Source: Candidatus Cloacimonadales bacterium (GTDB lineage: Bacteria > Cloacimonadota > Cloacimonadia > Cloacimonadales > JAFGVF01). Taken from it: a DNA stretch of 64,000 bases. Every line of letters starts with the position of its first letter. Position 1 is the first letter of the stretch. The position numbers were made by a program, and so were the translations under genes. The stretch is from contig CAXXOU010000002.1 in NCBI GenBank assembly GCA_963677495.2, forward strand, positions 230,523-294,522, read 5' to 3'. Shown here one piece after another: positions 5,149-48,357 of the stretch. Under the pieces are notes generated by a model. That model did no database searches and had not been told where the DNA came from. It saw only the letters and a list, made by a program, of their open reading frames with translations.

Positions 5149-5310
5149 GTCTCTTCATCTCCCTGCAGTAATTCTTGGTAGACACTTGGCAAACCCTTGG
5201 TAAACCCTTGGCCTATTCTTGGCCTAATCGCCAAGAATTTACCAACCTATCGCCAAGTTAAAACCTGTTTACAATCACTAGTTACTGCAGAGAGTAGCGA
5301 GATGAATGAA
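5149..5310. repeat. Phased-word hairpin element, copy 1 (its left 9 nt lie at 3783-3791, split off by the IS3 insertion)
   Basis: CTTGG starts at 5174, 5185, 5196, 5207 and 5218, then CCAAG/CCAAC/CCAAG at 5231, 5242 and 5253, all on an 11-nt phase. Outer arms CTGCAGTAA (5163-5171) and TTACTGCAG (5282-5290). Homologous to 36128-36305. Confidence 0.8.
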
Positions 5311-13509: not shown

Positions 13510-13655
13510 CTCTCACTGCTCTATCACAATTCCCATGAGTCTCTAGAGGGTCTCCTATTGAAATCCTATTAATTTCCGGTTATGGGGGATAGGAGACTGA
13601 GTAGAATGTGGTAAGGTGAGTATAGTTTTTGAATCATTATTGTGATAGGGTAATG
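13510..13655. repeat. Phased-word hairpin element, copy 3
   Basis: Arms CTATCACAAT (13521-13530) and ATTGTGATAG (13639-13648). CCTAT/CCTAT/CCGGT start at 13554, 13565 and 13576 (11-nt phase). Inner stem GTCTCCTAT / ATAGGAGAC. Shares the AATTC(C/T)CATGAGTCTCT core with 16207-16300. Confidence 0.7.
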
Positions 13656-13862
13656 AAATGGGCATGTAGCTCCAATTTTACATTAAAATGTACGCCCTTT
13701 AAAAGCTATTTCTGCCTTCCTTATTTCTCAATAGATACTCGTTAGCTTCCCTTTAGATCCCCGTTTCGGAAGTAGGGAATTGGATACGCAATAGATGGGA
13801 TAAAGATGTAGACAAAATTCCAATTAAGAAAGAACAATTCTAAAGATATAAATCAGGGAAAT

Positions 13863-16192: not shown

Positions 16193-16206
16193 GCTCATAT
16201 CTTCTT

Positions 16207-16300
16207 CATTACTCCCTCACAATTCTCATGAGTCTCTTGGGCCTTTCTTGGGGATTTCAGGAAAATTAACTGATCTAATGTATAAGAGAGTGATAGGAAA
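16207..16300. repeat. Phased-word element, copy 4 (arms degenerate)
   Basis: Core CACAATTCTCATGAGTCTCTTGGGCC. CTTGG at 16236 and 16247 and CAGG at 16258 (11-nt phase). Confidence 0.55.
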
Positions 16301-16371
16301 ATGGCAAGGAAGGGACCATTAAGAAATCAGTATTAAGATAGAGCAATGTAGAAGGTATAAGTTATGGAAAC

Positions 16372-34287: not shown

Positions 34288-34725
34288 ATATGGATTTATG
34301 GAATTAACCGACTATGTCGGTTTGTCGTGTCACATTTCGTTGAGTAGCTGATAATAGTTTAGTTATGCTTTTTTAATGTCGCGTGGCAGTTGCATCTACA
34401 CAGTATATGCAGTCCAAAGGAATATGGAATTAACCGACTATGTCGGTTTGTCGTGTCACATTTCGTTGAGTAGCTGATAATAGTTTAGTTATGCTTTTTT
34501 AATGTCGCGTGGCAGTTGCATCTACACAGTATATGCAGTCCAAAGGAATATGGAATTAACCGACTGTGTCGGTTTGTCATGTGGCACTTAGTTTAGTGGC
34601 TCATTTTTGTTTAGTTGATGCTCTCAAAGTCGCGTGGTAGTTGCATCTACACAGTAAATGCAGTCCAAAGGAATATGGAATTAACCGACTGTGTCGGTTT
34701 TTCATGTGGTACTTAGTTAATTTGT
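34288..34725 (+). repeat. Tandem array of a 125-126-bp REP-like unit (3 full units plus 1 partial) upstream of the RAYT gene
   Basis: Units start (TATGGAATTAACCGAC) at 34297, 34423, 34549 and 34674. Units 1 and 2 look identical by eye. Each carries hairpin AACCGAC-NNN-GTCGGTT and a second stem TGCAT...ATGCA. Confidence 0.9.
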
Positions 34726-34749: not shown

Positions 34750-35286
34750 ATGTATAAAGAGTATAAGCATAATCCCCCGCACCTTTTTCTTGCAGACACA
34801 AAATACTTTATCACAACTTCAACCTTAGGAAGGTATAAATATCTTGGAACTAAAGAAGCCAAAGATGCTATTTTGCATTATCTCGTGAAAACAATCAACC
34901 ACTTCAATTGGATATTAGAAGATTGGGTCATTTTAGATAATCATCTACACTTAATGATGACAGCTCCAGAGGACGCTACTAATCTTCCAGAATTAATGCA
35001 TAACATCACTCGATTTTCTGCCAATTGGCTTTCTAAACATGGTGTCAAAAAGATAGAAAGACAATATTTCCATAACTATTGGGATACCTGTATAACATAC
35101 GAAAGGTCATATTATTGTCGTCTAAACTATATTTGGAATAACCCTGTAAAACATGGATATGTTGAATACCCGGAAGATTGGGAGTATGGGAGTTATTTCT
35201 ACAGAATAAGAGAACTTGAAAACGACACTCATAAGATAATGAACAACTATCCCATTGACAGAATTCATGTTGAAGATGACTTTTAA
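34750..35286 (+). CDS. REP-associated tyrosine transposase (RAYT; IS200/Y1 HUH family)
   Basis: 178 aa. HUH motif in LDNHLHLMM, and catalytic Tyr region RLNYIWNNPVKHGYV typical of RAYT/Y1 transposases. Embedded in the REP-like array. Confidence 0.8.
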   Translation: MYKEYKHNPPHLFLADTKYFITTSTLGRYKYLGTKEAKDAILHYLVKTINHFNWILEDWVILDNHLHLMMTAPEDATNLPELMHNITRFSANWLSKHGVKKIERQYFHNYWDTCITYERSYYCRLNYIWNNPVKHGYVEYPEDWEYGSYFYRIRELENDTHKIMNNYPIDRIHVEDDF

Positions 35287-35287
35287 A

Positions 35288-35413
35288 TATGGAATTAACC
35301 GACTGCGTCGGTTTGTCTTGTCACACATAGTTTAGTGGCATATTTTTATTTAGTTGATGCTCTCAAAGTCGCGTGGCAGTTGCATTTACATAGTATATGC
35401 AGTCCAAAGGAAT
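35288..35413 (+). repeat. REP-like unit downstream of the RAYT gene
   Basis: TATGGAATTAACCGACTGCGTCGGTTTGTC...GTTGCATTTACATAGTATATGCAGTCCAAAGGAAT, in the same orientation as the upstream array. Confidence 0.9.
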
Positions 35414-36127: not shown

Positions 36128-36305
36128 TTTACCCTTATTCCCCCTCATTGCCCTGCAGTAATCCTTGAAAGACCCCTGTGAAACCCTTGGGAAACACTTG
36201 GGTAACCCTTGGGTTAAATACCAGGGAGTAAACAATTTATTAATAATTTAGAATTTAGTTGAAGGCATTTGTTACTGCTGAGAGAAGAGAGGGAATGAGA
36301 GAGTA
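36128..36305. repeat. Phased-word hairpin element, copy 2 (closest paralogue of copy 1)
   Basis: CCCTTATT..CTCATTGCCCTGCAGTAATCCTTG aligns with the reconstructed copy 1. CTTGG at 36186, 36197 and 36208, with related words at 36164 and 36176. Right arm TTACTGCTG...AATGAGAG. Confidence 0.75.
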
Positions 36306-37503: not shown

Positions 37504-38064
37504 ATGAAGCTGATTGAAATGAGTTTACCGGAGTACAATATTGAATCAAAACCTGATTATGCAAAACTTGGTAATATTGTAGATAACGTAATTGCTCAGA
37601 ACCTAGATGATGGGGAGTATATTCTTAGAGCAATAAGCTCATATGATCATGACGGTTTATCTCTTGATAACTTAGTATCAAAGATTACTGAACTCGGAAC
37701 AGATCATTATGATCCCAATCGAAAGCAAGTATGTCAAGCTGAGTTTGCTGATTATGATTTCGACATTCATGCCGGAAGACTTAAAATTGAGAATGGAAAG
37801 GTTATTGTCCCAAAAGATAACATAGTAGATTCTGAATTTGGTGATATAATATATCATTTTTATGAGCATACCTTGCTTGATAGAGGTTATCCTCTAAGAA
37901 TAGATGTTTTGATGATTTATGACTCCAAACTAGTTGTCCCAGCTACAAGAGTTCGGACAGATCTGCCTGATGTTAATCCCAACCTTAGTAATTGCCTATA
38001 TAGGTTTGTTAATCCTGACAAGAAAAGGGATGCTTTAATTGCCGTAGTGAAAATATTGAAGTAA
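37504..38064 (+). CDS. Hypothetical protein (186 aa), adjacent to the kinase-like gene (2-nt gap) and probably co-transcribed
   Basis: ORF begins 2 nt after the previous stop. No motif recognised. Confidence 0.55.
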   Translation: MKLIEMSLPEYNIESKPDYAKLGNIVDNVIAQNLDDGEYILRAISSYDHDGLSLDNLVSKITELGTDHYDPNRKQVCQAEFADYDFDIHAGRLKIENGKVIVPKDNIVDSEFGDIIYHFYEHTLLDRGYPLRIDVLMIYDSKLVVPATRVRTDLPDVNPNLSNCLYRFVNPDKKRDALIAVVKILK

Positions 38065-38091: not shown

Positions 38092-38264
38092 TTTTCATCC
38101 TCAATTCTCTATCACTGCACTATCATAATTCCCAATTGAAGGTACTCTGATTCAAGGGAGTCTCTTGGGCCTCACTGGGAAAAATAGACAAGTGACTGAT
38201 TGGAAATGGACAGGATGTTCTAGGTTAAAGAACCATTATTATGATAGTGCAGTGAAGATGAAAA
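38092..38264. repeat. Phased-word hairpin element, copy 5
   Basis: Perfect 17-bp arms CACTGCACTATCATAAT (38113-38129) and ATTATGATAGTGCAGTG (38238-38254), plus outer TTTTCATC / GATGAAAA. GGG at 38156, 38167 and 38177. Core GAGTCTCTTGGGCC is shared with copies 3 and 4. Confidence 0.8.
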
Positions 38265-38327: not shown

Positions 38328-38732
38328 ATGGAGATGATAATGGAAGAACTTAACAAAGTAATGGAATCATTAACACTTGAATTTCTCGGTTCAGGTACAT
38401 ATAGAGTGTCACCGCAACAGTTCATTGCAGAAAAAGACGCAATATTTCTTGATATACGCACCAATGAAGAGATTGAAACGATTAGTTTAAACCTTAAATA
38501 CCACCAAACTGTACTAAGAATTCCTCTAAATGAGCTTCCTAAAAGGCTTGGTGAGATACCAAAGGATAAGATAGTAGGTCTGTTCTGCTCATCCGGCGTT
38601 AGAATTGCTATGGCATACCTTTATCTAAGAACTGCGGGGTTCGAGAATGTTTTGATGATTTCCGGTGGTCTTGATGCTATTATCAGTGAACTAAAACCCG
38701 GTGGAGTGCTTAAGGCAGTTCAAACTTTGTAG
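38328..38732 (+). CDS. Rhodanese-domain protein
   Basis: 134 aa. FLDIRTNEE and active-site loop CSSGVR. The start is ambiguous (38328 or 38340). Confidence 0.75.
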   Translation: MEMIMEELNKVMESLTLEFLGSGTYRVSPQQFIAEKDAIFLDIRTNEEIETISLNLKYHQTVLRIPLNELPKRLGEIPKDKIVGLFCSSGVRIAMAYLYLRTAGFENVLMISGGLDAIISELKPGGVLKAVQTL

Positions 38733-47664: not shown

Positions 47665-47922
47665 ATTATACCATTTTTCATCGCTCAGAGTAGTAAACCC
47701 TTTTTATGGAGTTTGTCACACCCAACGGGCGAACGGACTTCCTAAAAAGACCTAACCCTTGCAGTTACAAGAGCAACATAGCCCGGCTAAAGATACATAA
47801 TCCAGGACCTACCCGTCACCCTCCAAAGAATAAAGGAAGTCCGTTATCACTTAACTACCGTTAAACTTCGGTAAACTCCCTTAATCTTTTCAATATCTGC
47901 TTATAAACATCTGATCTATTGC

Positions 47923-48078
47923 TTCTCTTTATCTAATCCCTACAAGAACCTCTTTGCACCGTTAAATAAGTTATGCACACGATGTGGATAACTTTAGGGG
48001 TTCATAGGGAGGGTCTAGGGAGGCTAAAGGGTGGGACAAGCGAGATTCTAGGTTTTTGATGAGATTAGATAAAGAGAA
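47923..48078. repeat. Phased-word hairpin element, copy 6
   Basis: Perfect 16-bp arms TTCTCTTTATCTAATC (47923-47938) and GATTAGATAAAGAGAA (48063-48078). TAGGG at 47995, 48005 and 48016, and AAGGG at 48027. Confidence 0.8.
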
Positions 48079-48357
48079 CCAGTTAACAAAGAATGTTAAA
48101 TGTTAAATGGTAAACGAATGCAAAATGAATGATGAAAAATGTGAAGTAAGAAACGTATGACAAGCTTCTTAACAATTGGGATTATTTACTGGAAGGAGAT
48201 TTTACATTATTCTTGAGAAGCGATATATGAGATAGAATATTGCTCAAATACTCAACGAAACTTGGTATATAAACATATTTTAGGGTAAAAAAGACTATTG
48301 GAATAATTATTACATTTTGTGAAAAGTGGTTAGTCGAATTGGGAAAGTGAATTTTTA

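Follow-up and report, generated by a model that had tools for sequence, protein, structure and literature searches.

A 148-bp foldback repeat with words phased at 11 nt in a Candidatus Cloacimonadales genome: paired arm changes between lineages but not within subfamily A

A gap between two genes in a genome of Candidatus Cloacimonadales contains a long inverted repeat, and the question raised by this locus is whether its arms are kept complementary because they pair, and if so in which molecule. The locus (positions 38092-38264, referred to below as copy 5) lies in the window, the whole stretch of 64,000 nucleotides that was analysed (C2:230523-294522); the source genome (G000) is 3.41 Mb long, has 37% G+C and is assembled in four contigs. 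A first-pass annotation of the window had assigned copy 5 and five further copies to one family of phased-word elements, in which the arms would differ between copies and the closing helices would be maintained by paired changes, the classical signature of a structured RNA or of ssDNA recognised as a hairpin.

Copy 5 lies within a 263-bp gap flanked on either side by ORFs of the same strand (37504-38064 and 38328-38732). The perfect 17-bp stem previously reported for it is present and is actually 18 bp long: the sequences TCACTGCACTATCATAAT (38112-38129) and ATTATGATAGTGCAGTGA (38238-38255) form an inverted repeat of 18 nt that is 100% complementary, with an arm-to-arm spacing of 108 nt. In the alignment of related copies described below (A1), each arm extends over 21 nt on the + strand: the left arm CTATCACTGCACTATCATAAT occupies 38109-38129 (A1 columns 6-26, delimited with the help of pair counts) and the right arm ATTATGATAGTGCAGTGAAGA occupies 38238-38258 (inverted-repeat search, A1 and pair counts). 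The arm and foot sequence of the element includes CATTGCTCTATCATAAT. The left arm is followed by a variable segment (38130-38152, +) with column entropies of 1.3-1.9 bits, the sequence of which is almost free among copies while its length is fixed (ungapped in 43 of 44 copies). Three words read from the sequence, CAAGGGAGTCT, CTTGGGCCTCA and CTGGGAAAAAT, then follow each other at about 11 nt (38153-38185, +), and the core AGTCTCTTG (38159-38167, A1 columns 56-64) is, on this strand only, invariant in 44/44 copies. An imperfect complement of the core, CAAGTGACT (38189-38197, +; helix 2 in the pair counts), varies freely and without compensation, whereas the core itself stays unchanged. A degenerate right variable segment, again of fixed length (38198-38237, +; A1 and column entropies), leads to the right arm. 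Relative to the consensus of its subfamily, copy 5 carries two double changes, at A1 pairs 12:149 and 16:145. The 134-aa ORF located 3' of copy 5 (38328-38732) has orthologues that are 55-63% identical in five relatives, and the upstream neighbour (37504-38064, 186 aa) adjoins that orthologue in none of the five. As the orthologues of this rhodanese-like downstream gene in the five relatives are accompanied neither by an element nor by a conserved upstream neighbour, copy 5 is without a clean empty site.

Iterated nhmmer searches seeded with copy 5 identified 140 loci of about 148 nt in G000. The profile matches 125 of them on both strands and the elements are therefore whole-length imperfect palindromes. 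The superfamily amounts to about 140-180 foldback elements with words phased at 11 nt in this genome and has a common layout: an arm, then a series of 3-5 words at an 11-nt phase, a central hairpin formed by the last of these words and its complement, a degenerate mirror half and a second arm. Subfamilies are distinguished by their words, which are GAGTCTCTTGGG / CTGGGG in subfamily A, CGGGA(A/C)TC in B, CTTGG(T/C)AAAC in C, TTGATAC in D, CCGTTA in E and CCTATTGAA in F.

Copy 5 belongs to subfamily A, for which a strand-specific profile detected 48 copies in the 3.4-Mb genome, with scores of about 100 bits on one strand and about 55 bits on the other; the subfamily A element thus has a polarity. 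Forty-four of the 48 copies are exactly 148 nt long and the remaining four are rearranged by 11 or 22 nt, that is by one or two words. Alignment A1 consists of these 44 copies (MAFFT) and contains a single 1-nt gap in total, at a mean pairwise identity of 60%, or 55% over the 108 columns between the arms. The closest pair is merely 92% identical, which argues against a recent burst. What subfamily A conserves is the spacing, the core AGTCTCTTG and two arms of about 21 nt each, CTCTCATTGCTCTATCATAAT (A1 columns 6-26) and ATTATGATAGAGCAATGAGAG (columns 135-155). The two ends are mutual inverted repeats with no separate end hairpins, and their match is explained by a single end sequence present in inverted copies; arms of the type CTCTCATTGCTCTATCATAAT are not palindromic themselves and the sole small hairpin is the central one.

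The six copies of the window turned out to be split over three families or subfamilies: subfamily A includes copies 3, 4 and 5, subfamily C includes copies 1 and 2, and copy 6 is from a separate family, so that the six cannot be treated as a single family in which a helix drifts by paired changes. The arms quoted for copies 1, 2, 3 and 6 were found as given. Copy 3 (13510-13656, +; inverted repeat and profile matches) is a variant of subfamily A carrying CTATCACAAT and ATTGTGATAG at 13513-13530 and 13639-13656; these arms are only 83% complementary, and the core is displaced by two words (22 nt) while the arm spacing is still 108 nt. Copy 4 (16204-16348, +; profile matches), likewise a subfamily A variant, lacks 22 nt and has arms that complement each other poorly. 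As previously noted, copies 3, 4 and 5 share the core GAGTCTCT(T/A)G(G/A)G, at 13537, 16230 and 38158. Profile matches place copy 1 (5154-5293, +; CTTGG words) and copy 2 (36140-36274, +) in subfamily C; both have the left arm CTGCAGTAA, and the right arm reported as TTACTGC(A/T)G corresponds to TTACTGCAG in copy 1 and TTACTGCTG in copy 2. Copy 6 (47920-48081, - strand; genome census) has phased CCCT words on the minus strand and the arms TTCTCTTTATCTAATC and GATTAGATAAAGAGAA at 47920-47951 and 48050-48081. The caveat of the first-pass annotation that the arms might be TIRs of unrelated elements was therefore partly true, in that the quoted copies come from different subfamilies, each with its own arm type.

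The young family of copy 6 comprises 38 loci, 36 of which are close copies. Its 90-nt core is 93% identical, its arms are mosaic among copies (about 14 copies have another right arm, GCAGCACGTACCAGACTYGTAG) and its indels are of exactly 11 or 22 nt. Mosaic arms on a near-identical core indicate that arm modules and interiors are shuffled between elements. This family also carries, at positions 47970-47992 of the window, two DnaA-box-like 9-mers arranged as a near-palindrome, GTTATGCACACGATGTGGATAAC; within it lies TGTGGATAA, the reverse complement of TTATCCACA. In subfamily D, copies such as the one at C4:778346-778473 of G000 have GTTATCCACAAC. Some 45 such copies are dispersed in the genome and might titrate DnaA.

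The presence of paired changes within subfamily A was assessed on A1 over the 21 pairs of the closing helix and the 9 pairs of the core helix, with 500 column shuffles. Paired cells represented 83.9% in the real alignment and 83.8% in the shuffled ones, the real value being reached by 208/500 shuffles, and 25 cells were double-changed compared to 21.9 in shuffles (reached by 129/500). The core helix showed 0 double changes, and pair 57:93, for example, is unpaired in 21/44 copies; as the left strand of the core is invariant and the right strand drifts to mismatches, it is the sequence of the core that is conserved and not its pairing. RNAalifold predicted a consensus of 0 pairs on the 44 copies, and a mutual-information scan with APC over all column pairs, performed on 63 copies from four species, revealed no helix and no direct-repeat coupling, with a lone helix pair (23:138) at about rank 37. 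Copy 5 is the sole copy with 18 Watson-Crick pairs among the 44, when shuffles predict 0.67 and a typical copy has 2-3 arm mismatches; its perfect stem is therefore within chance for subfamily A. No Rfam family matched the 64-kb window, which holds five copies, at the gathering score, and at E = 10 only two chance-level matches and no family were found around copy 5.

These results bear directly on the possibility that copy 5 is a structured ncRNA or a cis-acting RNA whose closing helix is kept by compensatory substitutions. Folding of copy 5 does beat that of shuffled sequences on either strand (z = -4.4 and -3.8), as expected from the inverted repeat alone, and the excess of G-T over A-C cells in the arms of subfamily A (35 to 15) is a weak hint of top-strand pairing. 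This excess is absent in subfamilies B (58:55) and C (30:34), pairing and double changes do not rise above shuffles, copies are oriented at random with respect to flanking genes, the surroundings of copy 5 show no conspicuous promoter or terminator and copies shared at the same site with a sister species differ in one arm without compensation. We consider an RNA of this kind barely credible. The covariation test that had been proposed for the family gave no support within subfamily A, and with neither a consensus fold nor an Rfam match, the interpretation of the arm changes as a structured-RNA signature is not upheld there. As RNA-type covariation fails the test, the copy 5 locus does not belong in a catalogue of candidate RNA genes.

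Genuine paired change is seen only when lineages are compared, and it is located in the innermost 5 bp of the arms. For all 140 loci taken together, 4.01 of the 5 positions of a left inner block pair with the right arm of the same copy, compared to 3.35 with the right arms of other copies (z = 8.7; 0/2000 permutations reach the observed value), a signal that corresponds to a handful of lineage switches and not to many independent events. The outer 10 bp show no own-arm association (8.29 vs 8.27). In subfamilies B and C, own arms also pair better than the arms of other copies (P = 0.003 and 0.0005, respectively). The inner block exists as ATCAT/ATGAT in 18 copies, CTTTC/GAAAG in 4, CTCTT/AAGAG, CTCAT/ATGAG and CATTC/GAATG in 3 each, and ATCTT/AAGAT and GCTAC/GTGGC in 2 each, and its neighbours on either side are constant: an outer block, CATTGCTCT/AGAGCAATG, and an AAT/ATT foot. 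The earlier proposal that helices are maintained by paired changes thus stands for this inner block between lineages and fails within subfamily A.

Arm types might also have arisen by foldback (inverted) duplication or by hairpin-templated correction in which, at replication, one arm is copied from the other; in that case complementarity would be inherited and not selected. Such a mutational symmetry would fit the structure of the whole element, an imperfect palindrome in which the right half is a decayed mirror of the left words, as well as the indels in 11-nt word units, which indicate slippage, and the uncompensated changes of resident copies. It would account for the symmetry but not for spread or conservation: arms and length are conserved beside decaying right-half words, and seven arm types have spread to several loci each. 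For these reasons we regard it as very unlikely.

The genomic context of the copies was analyzed for marks of insertion. Subfamily A copies are intergenic in 48/48 cases, and no preferred orientation relative to neighbouring genes was seen among them (in tandem contexts, 14 copies point the same way and 13 the opposite way; divergent gaps contain 12 copies and convergent gaps 9); likewise, orientation shows no bias with respect to GC skew. A search for target-site duplications over 14 x 18 boundary offsets with k = 2-8 gave matches in at most 1-2 of 44 copies. G000 yielded only scattered arm matches with 3 mismatches, and no longer element with these arms at its ends and a gene inside. Scans of public genome and metagenome contigs, which demand an exact arm match and would miss diverged partners, gave chance matches, with a family member at 0/63 metagenome loci, and Logan contigs of the source-sample runs (kind not on record) contained no variant or joint.

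These observations constrain the interpretation of the element as a classical MITE, the arms of which would be TIRs bound as dsDNA by a DDE transposase acting in trans, each arm type deriving from a different insertion sequence. Conserved TIRs of about 21 bp, a small constant size, an intergenic location and many non-coding copies are what such an element would display. Its insertion would be expected to leave a duplication, and none of 2-8 bp was detected at any boundary; no longer element with the same arms exists in G000, the exact-arm scans of public data yielded only chance matches and the inner-block dialects lying between constant arm blocks would demand many transposase specificities. 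A DDE-type MITE is therefore decidedly unlikely.

Subfamily A is restricted to one genus. A covariance-model search, in which both strands were counted, gave 72 matches in G000 and 36, 13 and 14 in three other genomes of the genus (G001, G002 and G003, respectively), and 0 of 37 other relatives had matches. The sister genome G001 (OY762964.1) is a Candidatus Cloacimonadales MAG, and targeted regions of it were compared to G000. Six of its copies match the site of a G000 copy on at least one flank: L036 (C1_241238 in G000), L056 (C1_780959), L172, L184, L181 and L182. In the L036 pair, the left arm is identical and the right arm has several uncompensated differences; the L056 pair (83% identity) again shows single-sided changes, and neither pair contains an indel. 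Same-site copies of the two genomes retain their arms, their core and the precise length of 148 nt at an identity of 69-83%, a pattern closer to in-place constraint than to selfish decay. For one G001 copy (L175), the G000 counterpart is a 123-bp spacer without an element, too diverged to define ends; neither an intermediate of excision or insertion nor a clean empty site with defined ends was found.

Many copies sit where gene order differs between G000 and G001. The flanks of G001 loci L040, L052, L058, L173, L180, L181, L182 and L186 map 36-400 kb apart in G000, where they often adjoin a G000 element. This split mapping indicates that the repeats mark synteny breakpoints between the two species. 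In the window, copies 3 and 4 bracket a gene region, and the G001 locus L172 is a single copy-3-like element with CCGTTA-type words that adjoins the orthologue of the DNA located right of copy 4; this suggests that the segment between copies 3 and 4 was gained or lost by recombination between both copies.

In-place constraint would be expected if the element were a double-stranded platform of the host, with arms, core and words serving as protein binding sites at fixed spacing, for example for a nucleoid-structuring or partition-like complex assembled on 11-bp iterons; the complementarity of the arms would then follow solely from the binding of two inverted sites by a dimeric protein. Precedents exist on plasmids: in parC of R1 and in the dso bind locus of pMV158, 11-bp direct repeats in arrays serve as protein platforms. 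Several properties of the elements agree with this interpretation: the length of 148 nt in 44/48 copies in spite of 55% inner identity, with indels of 11 or 22 nt, unlike the young copy-6 family, which is already gapped at 93% identity; the 9-nt core, invariant on one strand while its complement is free; the retention of arms and core in same-site copies of G000 and G001; the absence of strand bias relative to genes or replication; and the uncompensated arm mismatches. The inner block is more difficult to accommodate. If it were read by a protein on dsDNA, seven or more specificities would be required and the 6-7 arm dialects and at least 6 word dialects would call for as many cognate proteins, and if it were not read there would be no reason for both ends to change together and they would drift apart. 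Furthermore, copy numbers differ between sister species and copies are present at breakpoints, as for mobile or recombining repeats, and no candidate protein is linked to the elements. On balance, we regard a host platform as unlikely.

Single-strand transposases of the Y1/HUH type are candidates to act on hairpins, and the presence of Y1 genes was therefore compared with that of the elements. G000 contains 14 matches to Y1_Tnp (PF01797), 13 of which are over the Pfam cut-off, in several diverged groups; the loci include C1:783126, C3:348091, C4:910234, C4:675782, C2:97516 and C4:22109, and five paralogues are about 147 aa long. Relatives across the order carry 3-15 Y1_Tnp genes each, including relatives without subfamily A, so that the presence of Y1 genes is not specific, and their order-wide multiplicity compared to the genus-limited subfamily A counts against a REPIN-like reading of the elements. 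Phased-word elements are present at 2.5 kb or less from 9/14 Y1 genes when 3.9 are expected (P about 0.006), the nearest element lying at 594-2286 bp from those nine; this enrichment may merely reflect repeat-rich islands. No phased-word element directly flanks any of the Y1 genes examined. These genes are flanked by repeats of their own that recur in the genome; in the flanks that were read, these repeats are classical short-loop REP hairpins in arrays, a REP type different from the phased-word elements, for which reason Y1 genes were set aside as adjoining partners.

The window itself contains a Y1_Tnp (RAYT-like) gene of 178 aa (34750-35286). Three to four tandem units of about 126 bp precede it (34290-34720) and one more follows (35288-35413), each unit carrying a hairpin AACCGACTATGTCGGTT and a second hairpin TGCATCTACACAGTATATGCA; the ensemble corresponds to a classical cluster of REPs around their transposase and has no relation to the phased-word elements. 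Genes of PF05635 (23S rRNA IVP / Avd-like four-helix-bundle proteins) at C4:488200-489200 and C4:777000-778330 of G000 were also considered. They are bracketed by inverted arrays of 7-nt words (TAGCCTA... / ...TAGGCTA; TTAGCAT...) and a hairpin TGCACCAACGGTGCA, arrays whose grammar is as in the 11-nt elements with a different period. As their flanks are 7-nt word arrays and not 11-nt elements, PF05635 genes were ruled out as partners.

Copy 5 is a resident copy of a non-coding 148-bp foldback repeat, REPIN-like or MITE-like. Its arms are terminal inverted copies of one end sequence of about 21 nt, bracketing an interior of fixed length that contains the strand-specific core AGTCTCTTG and the phased words. 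The most probable single account, to which we would not give quite an even chance, is that the repeat behaves as a REPIN or another miniature non-autonomous mobile DNA and multiplies by a single-strand mechanism, in line with the ssDNA-hairpin alternative of the first-pass annotation. When a lineage multiplies, one strand would fold into a long hairpin on which a trans-acting enzyme operates; given the 13-14 Y1 genes of the genome, the first candidate for it is a single-strand transposase of the Y1/HUH type. Recognition by this enzyme would concern the conserved outer block of the arms together with the AAT/ATT foot and the core. For the inner 5 bp, pairing alone would be required, and a switch between lineages through two-sided changes could thus occur. 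Once inserted, copies would not be maintained as hairpins, and independent decay of resident arms would explain the lack of covariation within a subfamily. Movement as single-stranded DNA, like the class of the enzyme, is what we infer from a pattern in which a fixed outer block and foot, an inner block that switches by pairs, a palindromic structure and no target-site duplication are found together; a hairpin forming at multiplication would be its simplest explanation. Also in favour of this account are the intergenic location and random orientation of the copies, the proximity of elements to 9/14 Y1 genes, the restriction to one genus and the L175 site, occupied in G001 only.

Some observations fit this REPIN-like account poorly. 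The inner block is fully paired in only 43/108 copies, and a sublineage of 9 copies that inherited an uncompensated mismatch (ATCAT/AAGAT) and a replaced outer right arm has still multiplied, which counts against a hairpin-dependent process. The absence of a recent burst and the failure to find intermediates or an empty site with defined ends also speak against the account. Its weak points are that no cognate Y1 gene adjoins the elements and that there are signs of constraint in place: a length that stays exact at 55% inner identity, a core without variation and copies retained at shared sites, which selfish decay alone does not explain. We rank the readings as follows: a REPIN-like element, then a host platform on dsDNA, a DDE-type MITE, mutational symmetry and, last, an RNA. 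A rather unlikely further option is that phased-word elements are undescribed modules of fixed geometry, neither decaying selfish DNA nor an RNA gene: 148 bp with an inverted box at each end, a core invariant on a single strand and words spaced by one helical turn would be kept in place across species of the genus by a complex of host or element proteins that assembles on them, and the dialects would be generated by hairpin-mediated copying. The 7-nt arrays at PF05635 genes would then represent a related grammar.

The preferred, REPIN-like reading invites comparison with known systems. REPINs are REP doublets that form hairpins and are associated with RAYT / TnpA-REP Y1 transposases (Bertels and Rainey 2011, PMC3116915); in their spacer, sequence varies freely but length and the ability to pair are preserved, and variants differ by compensatory changes (PMC3116915). 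Phased-word elements resemble them in being non-coding, intergenic, dispersed and hairpin-forming, with two conserved inverted ends, a spacer that is likewise free in sequence but constant in length and able to pair, paired changes between lineages, no target-site duplication and several dialects in a genome that has several distinct Y1 genes. However, their ends do not look like short GTAG-tagged REP palindromes, their interior combines an invariant 9-nt core with 3-5 words at an 11-nt phase, the 148-nt element is longer than typical REPINs and it does not directly flank the Y1 genes, which have classical REP arrays of their own. Unlike PATE derived from IS200/IS605, the ends of phased-word elements are mutual inverted repeats without a distinct subterminal hairpin at each end.

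Bacterial MITEs such as Correia/NEMIS, ERIC and RUP are intergenic elements of 100-160 bp with terminal inverted repeats, present in tens to hundreds of copies; Correia elements duplicate TA, and ERIC is a whole-length imperfect palindrome. The elements described here are similar in size, TIRs, intergenic location and copy number, and share the palindromic structure of ERIC. They differ from these MITEs by the lack of target-site duplication and of an autonomous partner, by the phased words, by a strict length at 60% identity and by lineage-specific inner arm blocks. In the BIME / RIP of enterobacteria, inverted end modules form mosaics with internal protein-binding motifs (an IHF site). Arm types and interior modules are likewise shuffled between copies of phased-word elements, but there is no sequence relation and the words are 11-nt iterons and not an IHF site. 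Lastly, the pMV158 dso bind locus contains three 11-bp repeats and plasmid R1 parC contains 11-bp iterons. As in such HUH Rep iteron-hairpin or partition sites, direct repeats at one helical turn are followed by a hairpin that repeats the word (CTCGGGGCTTTGCCCGAG in subfamily B, CTTGGCCTAATTACCAAG in subfamily C). Those sites are single and located on plasmids beside the gene of the protein, whereas phased-word elements number at least 140 chromosomal copies in several dialects and have no adjacent protein gene.

We did not find this superfamily described, and searches of the literature on Cloacimonadota REP elements or on phased subterminal repeats in bacterial MITEs returned nothing relevant. 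It comprises about 140-180 copies in the 3.4-Mb genome of an uncultured lineage from anaerobic digesters, and it combines features that are unusual for bacterial MITEs: words at helical-turn spacing, a strict length at 60% identity and a 9-mer that is both invariant and strand-specific. Should they be handled by a Y1 transposase, the known substrates of REP-associated transposases would extend beyond short REP hairpins, and if a DNA-binding complex sits on them, they would constitute a new kind of chromosomal landmark. As they mark synteny breakpoints, the elements bear on genome rearrangement in this group.
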